64,000 nt of DNA from a virus (IMGVR_UViG_3300043395_002349:36090-100089); one strand, 5' to 3'; counted from the stretch's first letter, positions 6,905 through 58,962 are shown. Numbers and translations are program-made. Notes: a model not told the origin generated them from the letters alone.

Positions 6905-7570
6905 TTATAAATATTTGTTCTCTGGATAATGTAACGTTTCAATTAAAGGTATTGATGTAAGAAACGTTTTTCTTTCAAATGTTTCGTTTAATATTGGTGT
7001 TACTTGGTGTTCCGGATTTGAATAGTAAAAATCAATAACGCCATATCTTCCAAATTCAGGTTTTATAATATGTTCTTTTTCTACAACCAATTCACCACCA
7101 TCACCTTCTTTATAATCTTCATTTAAATAAAATAAAATATTACATAATGCGGCACCACTACCACCATCTCTGTGGTTTTTTATGAAACATCCTTTATCAA
7201 ACAAAGTGTAATTAATATGTTTTATTTGATCAAATTTTGAAAATACTTCAATCGGATATAATTCCACAACAATTTTATTACATATATTTTTAAACCATTC
7301 AAACTCATCCTTTTCCCATCTGATAGATGAATCAAAATACCAATATTGCCAAGCTGTATTTTTTTCTAAACAATCTATTTTTTTAGATTTTAATTCTTTA
7401 AAAGGAGTATTATTAGAATAGTTATTTCCATATCCAGTATGACATGCGTTTGTAAAATTTCCTTCTTGGTGGTTTATGAAAATATTTTTAAGAATATTAT
7501 AGTCTTCTTGATTTAATTTATCCGTATAACAACCATTTGATTTTAATAAATTATTTTTTTCTATATTCAT
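6905..7570 (-). CDS. 2OG-Fe(II) oxygenase (prolyl-hydroxylase-like)
   Basis: HRD...ILFYLNEDY...GGEL...HQVTPI...R. Confidence 0.85.
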   Translation of the reverse strand: MNIEKNNLLKSNGCYTDKLNQEDYNILKNIFINHQEGNFTNACHTGYGNNYSNNTPFKELKSKKIDCLEKNTAWQYWYFDSSIRWEKDEFEWFKNICNKIVVELYPIEVFSKFDQIKHINYTLFDKGCFIKNHRDGGSGAALCNILFYLNEDYKEGDGGELVVEKEHIIKPEFGRYGVIDFYYSNPEHQVTPILNETFERKTFLTSIPLIETLHYPENKYL

Positions 7571-46993: not shown

Positions 46994-47025
46994 TAAAGAT
47001 ACGAAAAAATTATTATATTTCCAAA
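46994..47025 (-). promoter_or_regulatory. Bacteroidota-type promoter
   Basis: TTTG-N20-TATCTTTA. Confidence 0.6.
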
Positions 47026-47783
47026 AATGAATAATGTTTTTTTAAGTGTTTATATAACTTATTGGAATACAATGAATTATGCAATGGTCCTGGATGCCCT
47101 AAGTCTGCCCCATAATCTATAAAATTATCATAATCACCATCAAATCTATTTTCATCAATAAAATTATTATCTAATCTAAACCCATTCCATAAAAAAGGTA
47201 TATTTTTGTCTTTTAAAAAATATGTTATAAGAAGGTGTGTTCTATACCAATTATTAAAATCATTATATTCATTTTGTAATCTAGTATTTAATTCGTGTAT
47301 GTATCTCCCCTCCTCCGTTTCTTGCATAAATCCCCATTTTATACCCGGTATATAAGGTTCTATTCCACCCTCTTTTGAATACAATTCTCTCCTGTGTGGG
47401 TATGTGTACATAATTAATACTAAATCAGGTTTTACTTCATCAAAATATGTAAGTAAACATCTACTTATAAAATCATTACTTCTACCGGCTGTTCCAAAAT
47501 TTAAATTAACCCCATTTTTTATTAATTTTGAAATTTGTGCCGGCCATGTTTCATCGTCATTAACACCAACACCTTCTGTAAATGAACATCCAATTGACAT
47601 TATTTTAAATCCTTCTTTTTTTATACTATCACCTCTAAATCCCAATTCATTATAAGTGTAAGTACATTTTCCCGAATTATCAGAACCCGATGAATTAAAT
47701 GTATTATTAATTCTATTTGATAATTGAAATTTATATGATGATATTTCAAATGTATCTTTTTTCCAATAATTTAATATTTTCAT
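47013..47783 (-). CDS. SGNH/GDSL-like hydrolase
   Basis: YNELGFRG, IGCSFTEGVG, NFGTAGRSN, DLGHPG. Confidence 0.75.
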   Translation of the reverse strand: MKILNYWKKDTFEISSYKFQLSNRINNTFNSSGSDNSGKCTYTYNELGFRGDSIKKEGFKIMSIGCSFTEGVGVNDDETWPAQISKLIKNGVNLNFGTAGRSNDFISRCLLTYFDEVKPDLVLIMYTYPHRRELYSKEGGIEPYIPGIKWGFMQETEEGRYIHELNTRLQNEYNDFNNWYRTHLLITYFLKDKNIPFLWNGFRLDNNFIDENRFDGDYDNFIDYGADLGHPGPLHNSLYSNKLYKHLKKHYSFLEI

Positions 47784-47786
47784 AAT

Positions 47787-48290
47787 TTAAATTAATTTAT
47801 TTATAGTATTATTTTCTAAATGAAAATGTTGCAAAAACCATATTAATGAATATCTGTTTCCTTTTGTTATTTTAGTGATTTCATGATTTAATTTTACATC
47901 AAAAATATATGTATTACCAATTTCTTTTTTTAAAATAATTTCCGTTTTATCATAGATTTTAAATTCGCCACCATTAAAATCATCATTAAGTAAAACACCA
48001 ACTGAATATATTCTTTTATCTCTTATATCGTTGTGTACTCCAAAATAATCCCCCTCACTATATATGTGAAAATGAATTTGTTTTTTTAATGTTTTTATTT
48101 TTATAGATGTGTTTTGTTCAAAAAAATTTTTTAATTTTTCAAAAATCCAGTTTGTATCATTGTTTACTAAGATTGTGTACGATTTATATTTTCTATCACC
48201 ACTATCCCAATATTGATTATTTTTTTTAACTAAATTAATTATTTTTTGACATTCATCTTTATTAAATAAGATGGTTTGATGTAAATTCAT
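47787..48290 (-). CDS. 2OG-Fe(II) oxygenase
   Basis: HND...LNDDFNGGEF...HEIT...G.RYS. Confidence 0.9.
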   Translation of the reverse strand: MNLHQTILFNKDECQKIINLVKKNNQYWDSGDRKYKSYTILVNNDTNWIFEKLKNFFEQNTSIKIKTLKKQIHFHIYSEGDYFGVHNDIRDKRIYSVGVLLNDDFNGGEFKIYDKTEIILKKEIGNTYIFDVKLNHEITKITKGNRYSLIWFLQHFHLENNTINKLI

Positions 48291-48819
48291 TTTTTATTTC
48301 AATTCTATATTTTTTACCAATTGGAAAAGTTAATTCTTTTAATTCGGGTATATCAACATATTCAATTAATTTGCTTATACCATTTCTATAATACAATTCT
48401 TCATATGAAATAATAAATCCATTTCTTTTTTCATAAAATTTTTTAAATTCTTTTTTTAAATTTTGAAAACTATTTTTTCCTTCTTCATCATAATATTTTT
48501 CTTTGTTTGTCCAAAAACCATGCCAATTTTTTGTTTTCTGTGCATGTAACCAAGATTCTATTTGTAATTCTTCGTTTTCTCGATAAAGATATATTACCTT
48601 TTCTGAAATTTTAAATAGGTTTTCAAAATCCAGTCCTGAATGAAAATCTTCTTTAATTAATAAATGTTTTGTTTTGTATTTGTATGGAAATTCTTTTGTA
48701 TACCATTTTGAATTTATATTTGATGGTAAAAATAAAGTTGTAAAATCTTTATTCATAGAAAACCAAGTTGTTAAATTTGATGAACCGGTTCTAGGTTCTG
48801 CCAATATTAATATTACCAT
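48262..48819 (-). CDS. Sulfotransferase-like protein (Stf0-like)
   Basis: PRTGSS PAPS loop, LYREN...QIESW, ISYEEL. Confidence 0.7.
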   Translation of the reverse strand: MVILILAEPRTGSSNLTTWFSMNKDFTTLFLPSNINSKWYTKEFPYKYKTKHLLIKEDFHSGLDFENLFKISEKVIYLYRENEELQIESWLHAQKTKNWHGFWTNKEKYYDEEGKNSFQNLKKEFKKFYEKRNGFIISYEELYYRNGISKLIEYVDIPELKELTFPIGKKYRIEIKNEFTSNHLI

Positions 48820-49341
48820 TTAAACTAATGTTTTATTTTTTTTTTCTTTTAATACTTTAAATGCTATTGTAATTCGCATATCTATCATTTCTTTTCTAGG
48901 TGCCATACCTCTATGCCAGATATTTCCATTAAAAAATACGGCACTATTTGGTATTGGTATATTACATATCAATTCATTATTGATTTTAAAATATGTTTCA
49001 CCTATTATTGATACATCATTATTTTTTGTAAAATAATACAAAAATGTATGTTCCAATTCATTATTATTATCTTGATGCCACATTCCATCTTGTCCTAATG
49101 TTTGACCATTTGCATATACTCTATCTAATGAATACTCCGTACCAATTATTTGTTGGATTTTGCCAAAAAATTCTTTTGTTATGAATTCAAATTCATTTAA
49201 ATCTGCATACCAAAAAAGAGATTTAGAATATGAGTTTAAACTACTAGATGCACCAAAAATCCACTTTACTTTATTTGATAAAATGTATTTAAGTTTATCG
49301 TATTCATCTTTATTTAAAATATTTTCATATTTTTCAATCAT
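48820..49341 (-). CDS. 2OG-Fe(II) oxygenase
   Basis: YANGQ...HQD...GET.F...HRG...RITIAF. Confidence 0.88.
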   Translation of the reverse strand: MIEKYENILNKDEYDKLKYILSNKVKWIFGASSSLNSYSKSLFWYADLNEFEFITKEFFGKIQQIIGTEYSLDRVYANGQTLGQDGMWHQDNNNELEHTFLYYFTKNNDVSIIGETYFKINNELICNIPIPNSAVFFNGNIWHRGMAPRKEMIDMRITIAFKVLKEKKNKTLV

Positions 49342-49832
49342 AATAATGTTGTTTGCTTTTTATCATTTTTAGTTGTTAATTTAAAAAATGAAACTAATGA
49401 ATATCTATTTCCTTTTTTTACTTTTGTTATTCTATGCCATAATTTATCATCCATAATTAGTGATAAATTTATTTCTGGATTAATTGTTACTTTATTATTA
49501 TTTTGTGAAATATATTCAAAATTACCACCTTCAAAATTTGTATTAAAATATGTAATTATTGTTAAATGTGAATTATCGTAATGAAATGTATCTGCGTTTT
49601 CGTCATTATTAGTTACTTTATTTATCCACATAGGCTGAAGCTCATACCTATCACCAAATGTTTGTTTAACATAATTGCTTATTTTATTTTTAAAATCTAA
49701 TAATTCATCTGTTTTAATTGTTTGTGTATTGTATATTTGAATAAAATCTGCAACAAAATTATTACATAAATTATTTAAGTAATCAATATCTTTATCCGAT
49801 AAGAAACCATATACTTTTATTAAATCAATCAT
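49338..49832 (-). CDS. 2OG-Fe(II) oxygenase
   Basis: HYD...FEGGNF...HRITKV..GNRYS. Confidence 0.88.
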   Translation of the reverse strand: MIDLIKVYGFLSDKDIDYLNNLCNNFVADFIQIYNTQTIKTDELLDFKNKISNYVKQTFGDRYELQPMWINKVTNNDENADTFHYDNSHLTIITYFNTNFEGGNFEYISQNNNKVTINPEINLSLIMDDKLWHRITKVKKGNRYSLVSFFKLTTKNDKKQTTLL

Positions 49833-50431
49833 AATAAACTATTTTCTTTTTTTGAAAATTCAAATCCTACATTTCCTGCTATTACTATTCTATCTAAATT
49901 AGCATTTGGAGCCGGCATTGGTGCATGTAATAAATCAGCCTGCATTATAATTAAATCATCTTCTTCTGGCCTTACCCAATATTCTTTTTTATTCTTACCC
50001 TTTATAAATAATACACCATCATTTTCATTCATAATATCTGGCATTTGAATATAATAAACATAAGTGTAAGTTGGAATAAAACTTTTGTTTTTTTCATTTA
50101 TTTCCGTATGTGAATGATATTTGTCCATAAAAATCCCATTATGAAAATTTAATTGAACAGGATTTTTAGCACTCACAATATTAATCCACTCTTCTGTTTG
50201 TATTGTATTAAATGGGATTTTTATAGTTGATTCGTACAATGCTTTGCACATATCAATTCCCAAATTGCAAATTTTATTTAATAGAATATCTTTTTTTGGA
50301 ATTGAAATAGAATCAAATTTATTTTTTGAATCAATCTTTTTAATTGAATCTATAATTAATTTTTTACTATCTAATAGATTTAATTTTGTTTTCCAAATAT
50401 ATGTTTCCGTGTCAAAGTAAATTTGCTCCAT
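49829..50431 (-). CDS. 2OG-Fe(II) oxygenase-like, HxH type (TIGR02466-like)
   Basis: WIN...HSH...YVYYI...H.P...RIVIAGN; start at ATG 50431 (TAATG coupling). Confidence 0.75.
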   Translation of the reverse strand: MEQIYFDTETYIWKTKLNLLDSKKLIIDSIKKIDSKNKFDSISIPKKDILLNKICNLGIDMCKALYESTIKIPFNTIQTEEWINIVSAKNPVQLNFHNGIFMDKYHSHTEINEKNKSFIPTYTYVYYIQMPDIMNENDGVLFIKGKNKKEYWVRPEEDDLIIMQADLLHAPMPAPNANLDRIVIAGNVGFEFSKKENSLL

Positions 50432-50967
50432 TATAACAAACTTTTTTCTTTTTTGACTGATATCCAATCTACCAATAAATGTATTCTATCTTCATCTCCA
50501 TCATTAATTACACCATGTACTTTTTCCGTATTATTGATTTCCCATAATTCACCTTCTTTTAAATTTTTAGTTTCTATATCCACACTAAAAAAACATTTAT
50601 CGTTTGTAATAATAGGAATGTGTATTCTGTGTGATATTTCAAAACTTTCATGAACATCGGTATGTGTTTTAATTGCTTTGCCTGCTGGTAAATTTATTAA
50701 TAATGCATTGAATAAATAACCATCACCAATTTGTTTTTTAAAAATTTCAGATATTATTTCTAAATCATCTTTAAATAATTCATATTCTTCTCTGTATATA
50801 GCCTTTTTTCTTTCTTCATCAAAAATAATAGGTACTGATTTTGTGTGTATATGAACTCCTTCTGACATTTTTTGTCTGTATTTCCATGACTCCCAATCTA
50901 ATTTAGAAAGCTTTTTCTTTATTTTAGAAACATCTATTTTACCATAATATTTAAAGTTCATATTCAT
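50431..50967 (-). CDS. Aspartyl/asparaginyl beta-hydroxylase-like 2OG oxygenase
   Basis: HTD...RIHIPI.TN...GELWEINN...HGVIN...RIHLLVD. Confidence 0.85.
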   Translation of the reverse strand: MNMNFKYYGKIDVSKIKKKLSKLDWESWKYRQKMSEGVHIHTKSVPIIFDEERKKAIYREEYELFKDDLEIISEIFKKQIGDGYLFNALLINLPAGKAIKTHTDVHESFEISHRIHIPIITNDKCFFSVDIETKNLKEGELWEINNTEKVHGVINDGDEDRIHLLVDWISVKKEKSLL

Positions 50968-51616
50968 ATAGTTTAAAATCGTTTATATACATATCATATA
51001 TTTTTTTACCAAACTGATTTTTAAAGGATTCGTAATTTACTATATTCTTTTCACCCATATTTGGTCTTATATTTTTTAGCTCAACTAACTCTATGTTTAT
51101 ATATTCCGATAATGGTTTTATATCTTTTGTTATTTCTTCAAATTTAAAAATTTTTATTTCTTTTTTTGATTCATTCCACCAATTCTGCTCCCACCAAAAT
51201 CGCAAACCACCCCAATTTTTATTGTGAAATTTTATTTGTTTATAAGTTAATCCACCATAAAATTTTTCATAAAAGTTATCCATATTTGTTTTGGATATAT
51301 TTTTATATGTTTCTACCTTTTCTATCATTTGTTCTAGTGATATATCTTCCCTTCCCATTATTTCTATTTGATGTATATAAGCTGAAATAAATCTATCAAA
51401 TGGATTTCTAACAAATTGTATTACTTTATATTCATCTATATTTTGTATATTATATAAATCAATTATTTCATCTAACGTTAAATGTGTTATTGGGTGTTTT
51501 ACATTTTTTAATGGAGTATTAAATACAACACCAATTTCTTCCAAACTTCTTATAATAGAATTTGATGCTGTTTTTGGTGGTGTTAGTAATATTAATTTGT
51601 GTTTATTAGAAACCAT
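50951..51616 (-). CDS. Sulfotransferase family 2
   Basis: PPKTASNS, VRNPFDRFISAY, YINDF. Confidence 0.85.
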   Translation of the reverse strand: MVSNKHKLILLTPPKTASNSIIRSLEEIGVVFNTPLKNVKHPITHLTLDEIIDLYNIQNIDEYKVIQFVRNPFDRFISAYIHQIEIMGREDISLEQMIEKVETYKNISKTNMDNFYEKFYGGLTYKQIKFHNKNWGGLRFWWEQNWWNESKKEIKIFKFEEITKDIKPLSEYINIELVELKNIRPNMGEKNIVNYESFKNQFGKKIYDMYINDFKLYEYEL

Positions 51617-52134
51617 TATAATAGACTGTTAATATTTTTAATACTTTTTTTGATAAAAATAACTAAAACCTCTCTATTCCCACTTTCAACAGGCGTAACA
51701 CTATGCGTTAAATCTGCATCAAATTCTATCATATTACCAAATTTTAATTCAATGTGTTTTCCATCTAAATAAAAGTTCCCCCCTTCAAATCCATTACTTA
51801 GTATCATTACACATGTCCTTATTGATGAATGAGTATCGGTATGTTCATGTGCACCCTGACCAATTCCATAATTTACATAATGTACATCTGCTATATATTC
51901 TTGTTTTATATCGTACTTTACATATTTTTTAACAATGTCCATCAATTGTTTATTATGTAAATCACACCAAAAATTTTCTGAATAATCAAATAAAAAAGAA
52001 TTATAATAAGTTTTATCGACTCGTTTGTTGAATTTGTTTTCTAAATCATCACCTGAATTTTCATTTCCTATTTTATACACTTTTTTTATTTCTTCAATAT
52101 CATTTTCTTTTATATCGTAAATGTTGTATATCAT
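51616..52134 (-). CDS. 2OG-Fe(II) oxygenase
   Basis: HTD...FEGGNF...HSVTPVESGNR. Confidence 0.9.
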   Translation of the reverse strand: MIYNIYDIKENDIEEIKKVYKIGNENSGDDLENKFNKRVDKTYYNSFLFDYSENFWCDLHNKQLMDIVKKYVKYDIKQEYIADVHYVNYGIGQGAHEHTDTHSSIRTCVMILSNGFEGGNFYLDGKHIELKFGNMIEFDADLTHSVTPVESGNREVLVIFIKKSIKNINSLL

Positions 52135-52137
52135 ATA

Positions 52138-52641
52138 TTACAATAATGTTTTTTGTAATTTAGTATTTTTATTTTCAAAAAAACATACAAAACTAAATCT
52201 GTTACCATTTGTTACTGGTAATACTCTATGCCATACATTATCAGTCATAATTACTGCTGAATTTATTTTTGGTAAATATTTTTTTTGTATTCCATTTTTA
52301 TCAATATATTCCAATTCACCACCATCAAAATTATCATTTAGATATATTACAATTGATACCTCTGCTATATCTTTATGAAAGTTATCATTTTTATTAGTAG
52401 TAGTATTAATATAGTTTATCCATGTTGATTTTGATGGAATTAATATATATTCATCACCCAATTCATTTAGTAATATTGTATTTACACTTTTAATAAATTC
52501 TGGAATTAATTTTTGATTAATTTCTATTCTATTATAGAAGTTATTAAAATTAGGTTTATCTGTTATTACAAAATTGTTGCATTCGTTTTGTAATATTTTC
52601 AGCTCTTCATTATTTAATATGTTATCGACTATTTTTATCAT
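52138..52641 (-). CDS. 2OG-Fe(II) oxygenase
   Basis: HKD...YLNDNFDGGEL...HRVLPV..GNRFS. Confidence 0.9.
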   Translation of the reverse strand: MIKIVDNILNNEELKILQNECNNFVITDKPNFNNFYNRIEINQKLIPEFIKSVNTILLNELGDEYILIPSKSTWINYINTTTNKNDNFHKDIAEVSIVIYLNDNFDGGELEYIDKNGIQKKYLPKINSAVIMTDNVWHRVLPVTNGNRFSFVCFFENKNTKLQKTLL

Positions 52642-53681
52642 AAAAGTTTATTCTTTGTTTCTATAAAGTATTTTTCGACAATATCATTCATATTATGAAT
52701 TGCTTTAAATTTTAAATTAATTTTTTTTAATTCTTTTAAAAATAAATTAAATTCAGGATGATTCTCATCCCAAATTTGTTTTATCATAAATTGACTATCA
52801 CTATATGTTCCCCAATTAGTTATTTTATTAAAAAATACATCAACCTTATTATTAAATATCTTCATCATTAAATTATAAAAATCTTCCATTTGTGTATAGT
52901 TTGTATCTTGAACAACAAATGATACTTTTTTATTTCCTATTTTTATTTTAGATATAAACTCTAAATTTTTTATTAAGGTATTCCAATTTCCACCACGTCT
53001 TATTAATTTATAAGTTTCTTCATTGGCTGCATCTATACTAATTTCTATTGTTTTTATTAAGTTGTGTATGTGTGATAAATCGTTCCAAAGTTTTTCTGTT
53101 AATAATAATCCATTAGTGTGTATGTGTATATTTTTTAAATTTTTAAATTTTGTTTTATCAAAATTTAAAAGTAATTTTCTTATAGATTTAGAGGCAAATG
53201 GGTCGGCTGTGCCTGATAAGTACAATAATGCAATATCTTTTCCAAATTTTTCGGTGATTTTATCTATCATATCATCTATAAAAATGATATCATCTTCATT
53301 TGCCATTATGTTTTCTGTTCTGCAGGATGGGCATGATAGATTACAACTTCTATCAAATGCAAGATTTATGTTGACTGGAGTTTTATAATCTTCTTCTTTG
53401 AAATCCGATTTATTTATAAAACAAGAATGTTTTTTTCCCGTTGTTAATAATTCGGATAAATAAGGACATTTTGTTTTTGAACAATATGAGTATGAACCAT
53501 CTAAAATTGATTCTTTTATTTTTTTATACTCTTCCGTATTCCATGCGTTTTCTATATCTTCTAAAGATGAAAGTTTAACTGGAAGCCAAGACGGGCAACA
53601 GCTATATACAGCGTGCCTATGTGCTTCCATATAAACAAATGGAGTGATGCATACAAATTGTTTTAATATATCGTTATTCAT
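52638..53681 (-). CDS. Radical SAM enzyme with N-terminal SPASM/twitch-like Cys domain
   Basis: CNLSCPSC (CxxxCxxC), TNG, SIDA; N-terminal C..PF...CC...AWN...C....C. Confidence 0.88.
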   Translation of the reverse strand: MNNDILKQFVCITPFVYMEAHRHAVYSCCPSWLPVKLSSLEDIENAWNTEEYKKIKESILDGSYSYCSKTKCPYLSELLTTGKKHSCFINKSDFKEEDYKTPVNINLAFDRSCNLSCPSCRTENIMANEDDIIFIDDMIDKITEKFGKDIALLYLSGTADPFASKSIRKLLLNFDKTKFKNLKNIHIHTNGLLLTEKLWNDLSHIHNLIKTIEISIDAANEETYKLIRRGGNWNTLIKNLEFISKIKIGNKKVSFVVQDTNYTQMEDFYNLMMKIFNNKVDVFFNKITNWGTYSDSQFMIKQIWDENHPEFNLFLKELKKINLKFKAIHNMNDIVEKYFIETKNKLL

Positions 53682-54370
53682 TATAATAATTTATTTTTTA
53701 TAAATGGTTTTTCAAACCGTTCCCAAATAAAATTTTTTAATGTATCATCTATAATTATTTTGTTATTTTCTGGTCTGTTTTTATTTTTTTTATCTAACGA
53801 TTGTTTTATTTTTTTACCATATTTTGTTTCTAAAAAATTATAAAAAGAGTTTATATTTTTTAAATCAAATTCATATGTACAACGTTCCCCATCTTTCCAA
53901 TAGTTTTCAGGTAAAAACATTGAAATATGACCTACAAATTCTAAATTATCTGTTTTTACTAATTCTTTATAAATTGTTTCCCAATTTTTCCATTTTTCTT
54001 TTGTAACAAATCCTGCAATTAATTTATTTGAAAATTGATAATCAAAATGTTTATATATAAAATTATTATCAATATCCTTATATTCTATAATAGTTTCTAA
54101 ATTATGATTATATTGTGTACCATCAAAAAAATATTGTAAAGCACTCATCCATCTATCAAACCAATTTCTTGTAATACAAATCGTTTCTTTAATTCCAAAT
54201 TCATTGTATAGATGTGATTTTCGTATATGAAAATGTTTATCTTCATTTTCTAATAACAAACTTGCTTTTTTTATTTCTAATTCAGAATTTAATAAATCAT
54301 ACTCGATAGTAGTACTTGCACATCTTGGTACGGAAATCCAAATCAAGTCATTGTTTATCAATAATGCCAT
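53681..54370 (-). CDS. Sulfotransferase-like protein
   Basis: VPRCASTT, TRNWFDRWMSA. Confidence 0.7.
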   Translation of the reverse strand: MALLINNDLIWISVPRCASTTIEYDLLNSELEIKKASLLLENEDKHFHIRKSHLYNEFGIKETICITRNWFDRWMSALQYFFDGTQYNHNLETIIEYKDIDNNFIYKHFDYQFSNKLIAGFVTKEKWKNWETIYKELVKTDNLEFVGHISMFLPENYWKDGERCTYEFDLKNINSFYNFLETKYGKKIKQSLDKKNKNRPENNKIIIDDTLKNFIWERFEKPFIKNKLL

Positions 54371-54373
54371 ATA

Positions 54374-54919
54374 CTAATATAAGGATTTTTTTTGAATTTT
54401 CAAAAAAGGCCAACAATTTAATGAATATCTTATACCGTCTGTTATTTCGTTTATTTGGTGTTCTATATTAGAATCAAATATAAAAACACTGCCTATACTT
54501 TTTTCTATTGTATGTTCTATACCATCTATTTTATATACAATATCACCATCTACATAATCATCATTTAATTGAAATATGAATGTTAGTGTTGCACCCAAGT
54601 TCTTTATTGCATGACTATCTGAATGATATTTTAAAAAATCCGTCTTTATATATTTGTTAAATGCAAAATAATCTATTTTTGTGTAAATAGAATTTTTATA
54701 CACATTTAGACCGTTTATAAAATCTAAAATTTTGTTTTCTAAATTTGGGAAATTATTTGGTGGTATAAAAGTTAAATGTCTTTTATTTATTGTATTGTTT
54801 TGTATTGACCCATTTTTACTATACGTTTCCGATTGTTGAAGTTCTAATGAATTTCCAAATAAAATAATTTCCTCACACTCTTTTTGTGTAAGAAAATTTT
54901 TTTTAAATAACGTAAACAT
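54374..54919 (-). CDS. 2OG-Fe(II) oxygenase
   Basis: HSD...QLNDDYVDGD...HQINEITDGIRYS. Confidence 0.88.
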   Translation of the reverse strand: MFTLFKKNFLTQKECEEIILFGNSLELQQSETYSKNGSIQNNTINKRHLTFIPPNNFPNLENKILDFINGLNVYKNSIYTKIDYFAFNKYIKTDFLKYHSDSHAIKNLGATLTFIFQLNDDYVDGDIVYKIDGIEHTIEKSIGSVFIFDSNIEHQINEITDGIRYSLNCWPFLKIQKKSLY

Positions 54920-55221
54920 TATAAAAGTGTTTTAGAACCTTTAGGTTTATCTAATATATCAGTTGCGTTTTCATCTATTTCTTGCCATTTATTTAATTGA
55001 CAAGCATTATATTTACGTGAATATATTTTTTTGTTTAAAGGACAGTTACAATCATTACAATATGAATCATTTTTAAAAAATCTATTAGGTCTAAAATGTT
55101 CACAACCTAAACAAATTTCATATCTTTTTTGTGCTAATTCTAATTGTCCAGGTCGTTTCTTTTCATCATCTGTAAATGAATCATACCAGGACAAAATTAT
55201 TTCCTTAATATCTATACCCAT
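54919..55221 (-). CDS. Small Cys-rich metal-binding protein (DUF6171-like)
   Basis: RYEICLGC...CNDCNCPL..K......C..NKW. Confidence 0.7.
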   Translation of the reverse strand: MGIDIKEIILSWYDSFTDDEKKRPGQLELAQKRYEICLGCEHFRPNRFFKNDSYCNDCNCPLNKKIYSRKYNACQLNKWQEIDENATDILDKPKGSKTLL

Positions 55222-55245
55222 AACTTATTTATTTAACACTAATTA

Positions 55246-55323
55246 TTACGAATTTGCTGTGATAATTAATCCACCAATTTGCGTAAGTATAGTATTCATT
55301 GTATCTTTTTCTGCTGCTGTCAT
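55246..55323 (-). CDS. 25-aa small ORF MTAAEKDTMNTILTQIGGLIITANS
   Basis: Not in the ORF track; fills the gap between two minus-strand genes; A-rich leader before the ATG. Confidence 0.55.
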   Translation of the reverse strand: MTAAEKDTMNTILTQIGGLIITANS

Positions 55324-55341
55324 TTTTTTATTTTTTATAGG

Positions 55342-56844
55342 TTATACACAATAATATTGGCAAATATTTACTGGTGAATTTTTACAACATTGTGCCATCG
55401 GGCAACATCCATTTACATATCCAGGTTGATACGGAGGACATTGTTTTGAATAACAAGCAATATTGTGTTCAATAGTTGCATATGATGTATTTGAATCCGA
55501 ACCTGTTTTTGTTAAGAAATAGTGTGTTCTGGAAACTGTTATATACCAACCATTAAAAAATTCTTTACTAGTAGATATACTTGCAATTTCTTTTAATTCA
55601 TATTGTAGTTCACCATTTGTAGTGTCTACCATTATAATTTTATCACCAACTACCATTTCATGTAAATAAATAAATTTAACATTATTATCTTTTAAACTTA
55701 AATAACTTGAAATACCAGTATCATTCCAATCCGAACCATCTGTAAATGTTAAATTAAATCTACTTGTAAATGTAGATACTTTCACTTTTCCCAATACTTC
55801 ATTTGTTGAATAAGTAGAACCACTTACCAATTGTTCAAAGTTAATATTGAAATTTTCTTGCTCATCAATTGGATTTGTAATTTGTCCATTTGTATCAATA
55901 TCAATTGTTTTTAAAACATCACCAACTTCTAATTCTAATGCAGTTTTAAATGTTCCATCTGCCAATTCCACTAAATCATCATCTTCTAATTTTGGTAGGC
56001 CACCGATTTGATTTTTAGAAACAATATATGACCATTTATTATCTGAACTTATTTCAAATGTACTATTATCGTATACAGGAATTACTGGAACTTCCATTTG
56101 TGTAAATTTAGTATATGCACCTACCTTAATTGATTCTAATGATGGGGGATATAATAAATTTATACTTCTAATTACCTGAATATGGTTTTGATAAAGATTG
56201 CTTTCATTAAAATGATATTCCATTAAAAAATAATCTTTATTTACAAAATTTGCTATTACACTATTTAATTCGTCTTGTGAAGATACCTTAAATAATTTTG
56301 GATATACATTTATATCGTAGAAAGGTAAAACCGCTTTTAATATAAAGTTTGGATTGTTACCATTATCAGGTATAGATGTAATATGATTTACAATAGCATT
56401 AGTTTCATCCATATATGCAAATTGTGAACCAAACTCTGTATCTTTAATTAGATTAAGAAATCCTACTTTATTTTTACAATATTCTTCATCAACAATTGCA
56501 GTTGTATCATATGCACTTCTAATAATAAGAACATCTGCAGAATCTTCTACATATGGAACTGTAATTGAATCTTCACCTACTTTATGATTTTCATATGCAA
56601 CACCTATGTTATTTAATTCGGCCTCTAATACGACACCAAATTCTTTATTTAAATTACCAATGTAATGAACTTTGGTAAAAGAGTTGGATTGAATAAATGC
56701 GATAAGTTCTGCTAAATCAAATATATCGTTTTTATTTTCTAATGTAATATCACCATCTATTCCTAATGCGGTATTTATTTCAACCGGTACTAATTGACCG
56801 GCTTTATTATACATAAAATCTGTACCTAAAAGTATTGTTCTCAT
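55342..56844 (-). CDS. Circularly permuted ATP-grasp + Hint domain + C-terminal 39-aa Cys-rich peptide
   Basis: N-terminal GTDF...G...EINT, later FILKA, LMEY, VIRS; Hint LADG.FK...LEVGD (aa ~285) to YITV..THYF...HN (aa 461); tail C-C-CC-CC-C-C. Confidence 0.8.
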   Translation of the reverse strand: MRTILLGTDFMYNKAGQLVPVEINTALGIDGDITLENKNDIFDLAELIAFIQSNSFTKVHYIGNLNKEFGVVLEAELNNIGVAYENHKVGEDSITVPYVEDSADVLIIRSAYDTTAIVDEEYCKNKVGFLNLIKDTEFGSQFAYMDETNAIVNHITSIPDNGNNPNFILKAVLPFYDINVYPKLFKVSSQDELNSVIANFVNKDYFLMEYHFNESNLYQNHIQVIRSINLLYPPSLESIKVGAYTKFTQMEVPVIPVYDNSTFEISSDNKWSYIVSKNQIGGLPKLEDDDLVELADGTFKTALELEVGDVLKTIDIDTNGQITNPIDEQENFNINFEQLVSGSTYSTNEVLGKVKVSTFTSRFNLTFTDGSDWNDTGISSYLSLKDNNVKFIYLHEMVVGDKIIMVDTTNGELQYELKEIASISTSKEFFNGWYITVSRTHYFLTKTGSDSNTSYATIEHNIACYSKQCPPYQPGYVNGCCPMAQCCKNSPVNICQYYCV

Positions 56845-56863
56845 AATTTGTTTTGTTTACCTC

Positions 56864-56877
56864 TATAAATATAAATA
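56864..56877 (-). promoter_or_regulatory. Tandem putative late-promoter motif TATTTATA
   Basis: TATTTATATTTATA 20 nt upstream of the Hint gene; the same motif precedes the structural genes. Confidence 0.55.
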
Positions 56878-56888
56878 TCTTTAATTAT

Positions 56889-57497
56889 TTATAAAATTGT
56901 TTTTGTTCTTTTTTTATAACTTTTTTCTAAATCTAATATACAATAGTTTCCTGCTAATACTATTCTTTCTTTATCTGAACCTAAATTTATTTCAGGTCTA
57001 TGTGGCAAATCAGCCGAAAAAAATATTAAGGAACCTTCCATTGGTTTTATTTTATGTTCTATTTGAGTATCATCTGTTCTAAATAAAATTCTACCCGAAT
57101 TTTCACCTTCACCTAAATTTGTAGGTAGTTGAATGTAAAAAACCCAAGTATATTGGTTTTCTAAATAAAGTTCATCATTTAAAGTATGAATATGATATCC
57201 CGAATGTTTATTTTTTTCATCACTAATATAACACCAATATTTTAAATGATAAGGGGTATTAAATTCATAACCATATATTTCACAAAATTTTTCCCAAATA
57301 ATATTTTTTAATTTTGATAAAGATTCGGTTTGTATTAATATATCAGATTGTATACCTGGTTCCTTTTCTGTGCCTTTTTCAAATGTCCGTTTACTTACAT
57401 CGACATTAAATTTAATTTCTTTAATAAGTTGTTCTTTATTATATTCAATATCTTTAATGATATTAATTTTATATTTTTCTGAAAGTTGTAATTCCAT
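56889..57497 (-). CDS. 2OG-Fe(II) oxygenase-like, HxH type (TIGR02466-like)
   Basis: HIH...WVFYIQ...GSLIFF...H.P...RIVLAGN. Confidence 0.78.
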   Translation of the reverse strand: MELQLSEKYKINIIKDIEYNKEQLIKEIKFNVDVSKRTFEKGTEKEPGIQSDILIQTESLSKLKNIIWEKFCEIYGYEFNTPYHLKYWCYISDEKNKHSGYHIHTLNDELYLENQYTWVFYIQLPTNLGEGENSGRILFRTDDTQIEHKIKPMEGSLIFFSADLPHRPEINLGSDKERIVLAGNYCILDLEKSYKKRTKTIL

Positions 57498-58022
57498 TTA
57501 AAATACCTTTTTTTCTTTGGTTAAAAAACATTGTAATGAAATTCTTATATCAGCATTTAAATTTATAGTGGTAACACAATGTTTTGTTCCACCTGTTAAA
57601 AATACGCCTGTGTTTTTATCTGGTTTTATTGCCTTTATTTCATCATCTTCTTCATACATAAAATACCCACCCCAATCACTTTCCCATTTTTCATTTAAAT
57701 AAACTGTAAGTGCTCCTTTATATAAACCATCATTGTGCCATGTAATATAACTTAATTTAGGCCAAAAATGTATTTTTAAACCCGTTACAAAAAATGGTAT
57801 TTGTAATTCTATTTCTTTTTTAAGTAGATTAAATATTTCACTATCTTTATCTGAAAAATCATATATTACAACCGGTGTACTACTATTAATTAAATATTCA
57901 TCCCAAAATGCAGTGCTTGTATATAAATTACTATTTTTGTCCGTTTTGATTTTTTTAATATAATCAATTAGTTTAGTATATGTTTCATCCGAAAAAAATG
58001 AATTAAATTTAGTAACACTCAT
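57498..58022 (-). CDS. 2OG-Fe(II) oxygenase
   Basis: WHND...YLNEKW...WGG...HCV...RISLQ. Confidence 0.9.
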   Translation of the reverse strand: MSVTKFNSFFSDETYTKLIDYIKKIKTDKNSNLYTSTAFWDEYLINSSTPVVIYDFSDKDSEIFNLLKKEIELQIPFFVTGLKIHFWPKLSYITWHNDGLYKGALTVYLNEKWESDWGGYFMYEEDDEIKAIKPDKNTGVFLTGGTKHCVTTINLNADIRISLQCFLTKEKKVF

Positions 58023-58561
58023 TAAAATAACGTTTTTTTATTTTTTAATTTATCTTTTTTATACATTAAATAAAGTTGAACAACACTTTCATTTTCACCA
58101 CAAACCAATGTATCTCTCCAATGTTCAAATTTATTAGAATCAATAATAACCAACGCATCACCAACTTTTATATCATATCCAATTTGGTTACCATCAATTA
58201 AAAAATATAAAGGCCATTCCTTATTTGTTTTTTGTAAGCATACTGAAATGGTTATGTTTATTGAATCTTTATCTTTATGTTTTTCTAAATGAGAACCATT
58301 TCTATATTCTCTAATATATGCATTAAAATTTTCAATTCGTATTTCTTTATCGTTTATTATATTTTTAACAACAGGTTTTAATTTTTCTACATATTCATCA
58401 AAAAATTTAACTAATCCAAATCCATAAGAATTTGCACCACTATCTACAATTGGAATATCTAAATCAATATTGTATCTATTTCTTTTTTTTTCTTCGTAAA
58501 ATTTATCTAATAATATTTTACATTCATCTACCGAAACTATGTTTTTTATATATGAAACCAT
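58022..58561 (-). CDS. 2OG-Fe(II) oxygenase-like protein
   Basis: Y.R.Y...L..HKD...ITISVCL...WPL...HWR. Confidence 0.8.
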   Translation of the reverse strand: MVSYIKNIVSVDECKILLDKFYEEKKRNRYNIDLDIPIVDSGANSYGFGLVKFFDEYVEKLKPVVKNIINDKEIRIENFNAYIREYRNGSHLEKHKDKDSINITISVCLQKTNKEWPLYFLIDGNQIGYDIKVGDALVIIDSNKFEHWRDTLVCGENESVVQLYLMYKKDKLKNKKTLF

Positions 58562-58572
58562 TTTATATTAAT

Positions 58573-58962
58573 TTAAATCACTTTTGGTTTTCTTTTTGTA
58601 TATTTTCTTTTTGGTTTTGGTAAAGGTGGATTATCAATTGCTAAAATAGCATCTCTAATTGGAATACATTGTTCATAATCCTCTTTATCTACAAAATATT
58701 GTAACATTCTATTTAAAAGATCTTTATATTCACTCTTTGGGATAGTTGCAAATACTTTACTATCGGTAAACTTAATGATAGCAACCTCTTCTAAATTATC
58801 TTTAATTGCTTGAGTAAGGATATCTAAAATCCATGGGTATAACTTATCTCCATTTTGGGATATGTATTGTTTAACTGCCGGTGATGCTGTATCATCGAAA
58901 TAATTTTTCCAATCTGTTTTAGCGTACATATCTGTAATTTTTAATAACTTATTAATATCCAT
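58573..58962 (-). CDS. Hypothetical protein with C-terminal UVR-like motif
   Basis: FVDKEDYEQCIPIRD. Confidence 0.6.
   Translation of the reverse strand: MDINKLLKITDMYAKTDWKNYFDDTASPAVKQYISQNGDKLYPWILDILTQAIKDNLEEVAIIKFTDSKVFATIPKSEYKDLLNRMLQYFVDKEDYEQCIPIRDAILAIDNPPLPKPKRKYTKRKPKVI

Follow-up and report, generated by a model that had tools for sequence, protein, structure and literature searches.

A C-terminal tag shared by the enzymes of a viral gene island and linked to an ATP-grasp/Hint protein

Why would enzymes of different folds, encoded side by side in one virus, end in almost the same few residues? The question arises from a gene island at positions 47787-58561 of a 64,000-nucleotide stretch of viral DNA (IMGVR_UViG_3300043395_002349:36090-100089; hereafter the window), in which most proteins finish with a short basic and hydrophobic peptide, the tag. 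A preliminary description of the window had reported the tag and suggested that it docks interchangeable enzymes on one scaffold. We find that the tag is a real, protein-level feature, that it occurs across folds, lies in a tail modelled as disordered and is tied to a gene for an ATP-grasp/Hint protein of 500 amino acids (aa; 55342-56844), here called H. Tentatively, and at slightly less than an even chance, we read the tag as a protein-level address or docking label for the enzymes of a peptide-tailoring island, read by one partner, most likely H with or without a neighboring micro-protein.

The window is the final 64 kb of a viral contig of 100,089 bp (27.8% G+C; CheckV completeness ~53%). 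Nearly all genes of this contig lie on the minus strand, and its distant protein matches are T4-like marine phages (Kyanoviridae cyanophages, Melnitz, and a pelagiphage). Open reading frames (ORFs) were re-called and each stop junction was read to check the C-termini; tag positions are counted back from the last residue (-1). Relatives were collected from IMG/VR with a profile of the family of the 2-oxoglutarate (2OG) oxygenase encoded from 52138 (20 loci) and with a profile of H (255 contigs matched, 80 kept). Scans of IMG/VR with single sequences of H and of the radical SAM protein gave no match, whereas the profile scans did. Two complete relatives were analyzed as whole genomes, namely G007 (209 kb, 225 ORFs) and G006 (238 kb, 313 ORFs). 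Megablast of the island against 50,697 phage records gave no match.

The C-terminal tag in the island and in related phages

All 16 C-termini quoted in the preliminary description are present at the genes concerned, and the ends that it had named as the nearest outside the island (KNNYLV, NKKYL, ENKYL) are correct. Its count of 15 tagged proteins out of 16 stands in the numerator but not in the denominator: H had been omitted, and the island holds 17 genes of at least 100 aa, giving 15/17. The two untagged genes are H, which ends in ...CQYYCV, and the Sulfotransfer_2 gene at 50951-51616. In the window the tag takes the form of a basic stretch followed by [T/S/K/N]-[L/I]-hydrophobic-COOH. Three of the 15 ends are weak variants (KEKKVF, TSNHLI, TINKLI), of which the last two follow the sub-dialects, RKN[LI]I and TNKLI, respectively, that their families use in other phages. 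The class I PDZ-ligand pattern S/T-x-hydrophobic-COOH, to which many of the ends had been likened, is matched by 10 of the 15. Under a loose rule applied to the whole 100-kb contig ([LIV][LIVFY]-COOH plus K/R at -3 to -6), 12/16 island ORFs qualify versus 7/97 others (Fisher 1.4e-8), with a composition expectation of ~2.8%.

In the loci found with the two profiles, nearly every gene around H ends in K-x-x-K-[T/S/N/K]-[L/I]-[I/L]. Among 100 unique tagged ORFs of the first 20 loci, K occupies -4 in 69% and -7 in 49%, T and S together account for 62% at -3, L for 72% at -2, and I or L for 90% at -1. Expressed in PDZ-ligand numbering, T and S make up 62% at position -2 of these 100 tagged relatives and the next residue is L, I or F in 100%, the latter being partly imposed by the selection rule. 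In the clade of L019, L021 and L022, whose H is ~30% identical to that of the window, the tags form a dialect of their own, in which Leu prevails at -1, Met or Phe are frequent at -2, and Thr or Ser are uncommon at -3 (KKML, KTFL, KHFL, KPLL, NYLL). When 432 tagged proteins are pooled, information content is restricted to the final seven residues, and no common N-terminal motif was found among them. The tags of one genome shift jointly: the window and the L019-L022 clade favor a terminal Leu, even in families that end in Ile elsewhere, which fits one shared reader per system.

The preliminary description had stressed that the tag sits on unrelated folds. Within the window this holds only partly, as 11 of the 15 tagged genes belong to the 2OG/cupin superfamily; across the related phages it holds fully. 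Pfam, PHROGs and NCBIfam identify these 11 as 2OG-Fe(II)/cupin proteins (one of them Asp/Asn-hydroxylase-like), one gene as a twitch/SPASM-type radical SAM protein and one as Sulfotransfer_2; the families of extra island members in relatives were assigned by Pfam. After clustering of 1,448 unique proteins, with a hydrophobic-hydrophobic ending as the rule for family counts, the families are bimodal, with the tag in most of their members or in none. Three or more tagged members occur in about 20 BLAST families, with at least seven folds named by Pfam or Atlas leads. These families comprise double-stranded beta-helix oxygenases, an Asp/Asn hydroxylase, radical SAM, two sulfotransferase-like families, a zinc ribbon, SET, GDSL-like and GT2-like proteins, and unknowns. 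Tagged members number 133/153 in the 2OG family, 61/62 in a 233-aa sulfotransferase-like family (which includes the 229-aa window protein), 54/57 in the zinc-ribbon family, 42/48 in the radical SAM family, 40/42 in a 186-aa family (which includes the 185-aa window protein), 24/36 in the GDSL-like family, 8/8 in the SET-domain family, and 6/6 in the GT2-like family. Each core or structural family has none, and H is the sole family that occurs regularly inside islands and is never tagged (0/61). The SET-domain protein, an island member in some relatives, is exemplified by L017:309-683 (124 aa; PF00856, E 2.4e-15), with a protein lysine methyltransferase fold.

The same enzyme families exist without the tag. 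In a representative library of 1.84 billion proteins, the strict tag is found in 85 of the 100 top representatives of the 52138 family and in 3 of the 25 at ranks 126-150. Untagged 2OG paralogs occur outside the islands of the same phages, namely a conserved subgroup ending in LNFWFH and the window gene at 6905-7570. The 2OG homologs of Melnitz and P-SSM3 are also untagged and end directly past the last beta-strand, and in cyanophage Syn9 the ten dioxygenase genes of a tightly coupled array share no C-terminal ending. The tag is therefore a lineage-specific appendage. The window paralog just mentioned (minus strand, 221 aa, ending in ENKYL) lies among tail-fibre-sized genes.

Could the shared ending be a non-functional by-product of A-rich initiation regions, stop/start overlaps, a recombination junction, a nascent-peptide effect or paralog inheritance? 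The tight coupling of the island genes and the dominance of one superfamily among the tagged window genes would agree with such an origin, which was weighed on ORFs pooled from the window and 20 related loci, 115 of them tagged and 198 untagged. The Leu codons at -2 of the tagged ORFs track the background (TTA 57, CTA 13, TTG 8, CTT 5, CTC 2), Ser at -3 is encoded by both AGT and TCN, and all four Thr codons are used. Tag and coupling also dissociate: for 21 of the 115 tagged genes the 12 nt downstream contain no ATG, TAATG or ATGA overlaps are present in 44 untagged genes, and coupled genes outside the island, like those of the Syn9 array, are untagged. The preliminary description had named an equal frequency of the tag in all coupled genes as a refutation, and this is not observed. 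Because codon usage equals the background, both Ser codon boxes are used and the tag is separable from coupling, selection acts on the peptide and not on the initiation region or a recombination junction. The window 2OG paralogs, mostly <35% identical and barely detectable by BLAST, retain the tail, so that its retention is not passive inheritance, and the unrelated folds that carry it likewise speak against a by-product. This explanation is largely refuted and is the least probable of those considered here.

The AlphaFold model of the tagged 2OG oxygenase at 52138 (predicted local distance difference test, pLDDT, 90.1) places the last strand, and with it the end of the folded domain, at residue 157, with residues 163-167 (KTLL) at pLDDT <50. 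Conservation of K161 and K164 nevertheless reaches at least 90%, on a par with the invariant HxD...H...R catalytic set. Conservation within a tail predicted to be disordered is the mark of a short linear motif, and the tag is expected to be exposed.

Linkage of the tag to H

The preliminary description had pointed to the ATP-grasp/Hint protein as the obvious candidate scaffold, and the tag does co-occur tightly with this gene in 41 non-redundant H-anchored loci and in the two complete genomes. Across the 41 loci the tagged fraction amounts to 78, 85, and 73% at offsets +1, +2, and +3 from H, 17-24% just upstream of H, and about 3-18% from the eighth gene outward in both directions. The tagged genes of G007 are exactly the two that flank H, plus three scattered matches at composition background, while G006 has eight tagged genes around H within 115-123 kb, plus eight scattered ones, again at composition background. 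A further contig, G011, has no H match and starts inside an island that is cut by the contig end. The linkage supports the view that the tag defines membership of an H-centered tailoring module. The minimal island of G007 (C1:21379-24007) consists of H between two genes, one of 87 aa that ends in KSLI and is probably a zinc-ribbon family member, the other for a tagged protein of 243 aa that ends in KTFL; this island may define the core of the system.

H was modelled with AlphaFold2 at pLDDT 85.9 and a predicted template modelling score of 0.83; in the model the Cys-rich tail, residues 464-500, is disordered. Residues 1-280 are predicted to form an ATP-grasp domain of permuted, glutathione synthetase-like topology (best matches 2io7, 5oeu, 7uka, and 2wyo, Z 8.0-8.6). 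The nearest structural neighbors of this domain appear to be GspS, YgiC and eukaryotic-type glutathione synthetases, followed at lower rank by RimK, LysX and TTL-like ligases (Z 5-8.6 overall); these middling Z values suggest an assignment at the level of the fold. All of these ligases act on C-terminal or peptide carboxylates, and those of the GspS/YgiC/glutathione-synthetase type grip the C-terminal carboxylate of a peptide. The catalytic-looking residues E22, N24, R109, K170, and R226 are invariant in H, which is also the most acidic island family (isoelectric point 4.45).

Residues 281-462 correspond to a Hint domain, matching inteins, bacterial intein-like domains and hedgehog proteins at Z 12-15 and 2jmz in a PDB profile search (E 8.6e-4). 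At its end stands an invariant H460-N461. In the alignment, the first Hint position is occupied by K, H or Y and thus lacks the Cys/Ser/Thr nucleophile of a splicing intein, and the residue right after the Asn varies widely and is seldom Cys, Ser or Thr. The Hint domain could therefore perform no more than C-terminal cleavage, and an intein-style transfer by H is excluded by the variability of the residue after His-Asn. The peptide that follows His-Asn is hypervariable in every H homolog (L005-L104), with a length of 30-45 aa, 6-10 Cys and frequently a CPxCPK-like core; it measures ~39 aa in the window (55342-55461) and ~150 aa in L004.

Directly after H, most related loci contain an untagged micro-ORF of 25-29 aa (...TQIGxLIxxANS) that is conserved at the amino-acid level; its place is taken by a small ORF that is longer and amphipathic in the divergent clades L013 and L019-L022. 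No H homolog was found by tblastn in the 50,697 deposited phage records. Clustered at 90% identity, the H family numbers at least 666 clusters; the 120 members listed are all unnamed or 'hypothetical', and none has a precomputed Pfam domain.

Gene content of the island

The features of the island are collected in Table 1. The island probably reaches 47013, as the family of the 256-aa gene just beyond the range first described is mostly tagged in other phages. The zinc-ribbon profile retrieved only weak zinc-finger noise from the PDB. Directly upstream of the island, at 58573-58962 on the minus strand, lies a gene for a 129-aa protein of no assigned family, with an extremely basic C-terminus (KRKYTKRKPKVI), whose homologs end in RKTKK, TKLQS or INKL.

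Table 1. Genes of the island in the window, from its upstream end, with their C-termini.
Coordinates	Strand	Product	C-terminus	Tag	Remarks
58022..58561	-	179-aa 2OG-oxygenase-like	KNKKTLF	tagged	phrog_2954; family ends TKSL[IL]
57498..58022	-	174-aa 2OG-Fe(II) oxygenase	KEKKVF	weak	PF13640
56889..57497	-	202-aa 2OG oxygenase	KRTKTIL	tagged	
55342..56844	-	H, 500 aa		untagged	predicted permuted ATP-grasp, Hint and Cys-rich disordered tail
55246..55323	-	25-aa conserved micro-ORF	...ANS	untagged	directly after H; ...TQIGGLIITANS
54919..55221	-	100-aa zinc-ribbon-like protein	KGSKTLL	tagged	CxxC...CxxCxC...C
54374..54919	-	181-aa 2OG oxygenase	QKKSLY	tagged	phrog_61
53681..54370	-	229-aa candidate sulfotransferase-like	IKNKLL	tagged	Atlas lead only
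52638..53681	-	347-aa radical SAM	TKNKLL	tagged	twitch/SPASM-like
52138..52641	-	167-aa 2OG oxygenase	LQKTLL	tagged	
51616..52134	-	172-aa 2OG oxygenase	NINSLL	tagged	
50951..51616	-	221-aa Sulfotransfer_2	YEYEL	untagged	sole homolog in the loci likewise untagged
50431..50967	-	178-aa Asp/Asn beta-hydroxylase-like	KEKSLL	tagged	
49829..50467	-	2OG oxygenase	KENSLL	tagged	start probably ATG at 50432
49338..49832	-	164-aa 2OG oxygenase	KQTTLL	tagged	
48820..49341	-	173-aa 2OG-like	KNKTLV	tagged	weak Pfam match
48262..48819	-	185-aa candidate sulfotransferase-like	TSNHLI	variant	Atlas lead only
47787..48290	-	167-aa 2OG oxygenase	TINKLI	variant	TNKLI sub-dialect
47013..47783	-	256-aa protein	YSFLEI		just beyond the range first described; family elsewhere mostly tagged (KQNLI, KQSLI, ERKLI)

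What may read the tag, and what it would mean

We favor non-covalent docking on H from its co-occurrence with the tag, from charge complementarity and from the peptide-carboxylate-binding ancestry of the ATP-grasp domain, which together bring this partner close to, if not quite to, an even chance. H would combine a glutathione synthetase-like ATP-grasp ligase, a Hint domain that can cut only on its C-terminal side, and a hypervariable Cys-rich peptide as the center of the island. One common partner would read every tagged protein, most likely the strongly acidic H, possibly together with the micro-protein. Swappable oxygenases, sulfotransferases, radical SAM proteins and other modifiers would in this way be held near the tethered peptide, and the Hint domain would release the Cys-rich peptide after modification. 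The enzyme set, with prolyl/Asp-type hydroxylases, sulfotransferases, SPASM-like radical SAM and SET proteins, suits the modification of a Cys/Tyr-rich peptide. In a stronger form, which we consider rather doubtful, the island would be an inverted system for peptides made on the ribosome and modified after translation (RiPPs): the 460-aa ligase-Hint hub would be the precursor, the recognition peptide would sit on the enzymes, and the glutathione synthetase-like pocket would read or ligate the tag ends.

Several observations weigh against docking on H. Lone tagged 2OG genes also lie in structural modules remote from any island (L010, L018, and L013, on contigs that are only 4-14% complete), so that adjacency to H is not required. 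No column of the H alignment convincingly tracks the genome-level choice between L and I in the tag (best F1 0.67), and no natural enzyme-H fusion of >910 aa was found. Because the ATP-grasp domain keeps its catalytic-looking invariant residues, its carboxylate pocket may hold a true substrate rather than the tags.

The first two of these points would equally agree with a reader supplied by the host, such as an unfoldase or protease for which the tag is a degron, a chaperone, or a membrane or localization system, timing or placing the island enzymes. The tail is short, basic, hydrophobic-ended and apparently disordered, as such a signal might be, and the phage itself offers no obvious PDZ reader: no match to PF13180 or PF17820, the two PDZ models searched, and in phage genomes only, was obtained in G000, G006 and G007, that is, in the phage contig or its two complete relatives, whereas controls matched. 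However, the tag is limited to island families, with the more than 200 other ORFs of each complete genome not above background, and a generic host signal is unlikely to follow one gene module so strictly. Moreover, K at -7, K at -4 and T/S at -3 are conserved more tightly than typical degrons require. We consider a host factor unlikely. Less probable still is that the tag is a covalent substrate, the ATP-grasp domain of H activating its carboxylate and ligating it to an amine (for example a small amine, the side chain of a Lys, or the new N-terminus that Hint cleavage would give the released peptide). The need for the motif to be at the extreme C-terminus, the nearest relatives of the H N-domain, its invariant residues and the position of H as the one untagged island protein would all be in keeping with this, but there is no biological rationale for joining a dozen enzymes to anything. 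The tag might also be a packaging signal through which the enzymes enter the capsid or virion, as cargo-loading peptides serve the HK97-fold shell of encapsulins. Such loading follows the same logic of unrelated cargoes with a common C-terminal peptide; T4-like capsids have the HK97 fold, and the island adjoins structural genes. Yet the motif differs from known cargo-loading peptides, the linkage is with H and not with capsid genes, and the loading of 10-15 cofactor-dependent enzymes is hard to rationalize. No shell gene is evident among the island families (enzymes, H, zinc ribbon), no dedicated hidden Markov model search having been aimed at one. Packaging is, in our view, highly improbable.

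The tag can be compared with several known systems. The peroxisomal targeting signal PTS1 (-SKL) is read by Pex5. The targeting complex of cytosolic iron-sulfur cluster assembly (CIA) reads the client C-terminal tripeptide [LIM]-[DES]-[WF]-COO- (Marquez et al., PMC10245660). As in these client tags, a free C-terminal motif of 3-7 residues is found on many unrelated enzymes, here of ~20 families. The analogy is one of logic only, since the receptors of CIA and PTS1 are eukaryotic, and the motif K-x-x-K-[TS]-[LI]-[IL] belongs to one gene island of a bacterial virus rather than being cell-wide. Delivery of a metal cofactor, as in CIA, is judged unlikely, as the tagged sulfotransferase-like, SET and GDSL-like families need no metal center. 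The resemblance to class I PDZ ligands lies in T/S at -3 and the hydrophobic last residue; unlike these, the tag has additional conserved Lys residues at -4 and -7.

In RiPP biosynthesis, and likewise in non-ribosomal peptide and polyketide synthases, a short peptide (the leader bound by a RiPP recognition element, RRE, or a docking motif) gathers tailoring enzymes on one ribosomal precursor or carrier. The island's enzymes (hydroxylases, radical SAM/SPASM-like proteins, sulfotransferases, SET) fit such peptide modification. In contrast to leader/RRE systems, the common peptide is on the enzymes and not on the precursor, and the 'leader' would be the 460-aa ligase-Hint protein. No RRE/PqqD domain was found in the island proteins by Pfam and NCBIfam scans, several families being without an assignable fold. 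The tandem dioxygenase array gp45-gp54 of cyanophage Syn9 has been proposed to modify peptides (Iyer et al. 2010, PMC2938197). It shares with the island the rows of diverged 2OG oxygenases, the sulfotransferase or halogenase neighbors and the T4-like marine phage background, but not the tag. The C-motif-2 degron of MuA, recognized by ClpX, reads ...RRKKAI. The likeness, in which an exposed tail runs from a basic stretch through a small residue to a hydrophobic C-terminus, is physicochemical only; the last two residues here are bulky Leu/Ile, and a degron would leave the restriction to one gene module unexplained. Neither the tag nor the architecture of H was found described in a literature search.

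If the tag does dock enzymes, it would give viruses a simple and portable rule for recruiting unrelated enzymes to one substrate, for which seven, or even four, residues would be enough. The turnover of island genes would then be explained, as any enzyme that gains the tail would join the pathway, and a minimal tag would serve as a tool for the co-localization of enzymes. The finding makes the targets of many orphan 2OG oxygenases in aquatic T4-like phages testable, and it points to a very large, unannotated H family making hypervariable Cys-rich peptides. Should the inverted RiPP-like reading be true, the island would represent a new viral way to build and swap a multi-enzyme peptide factory.

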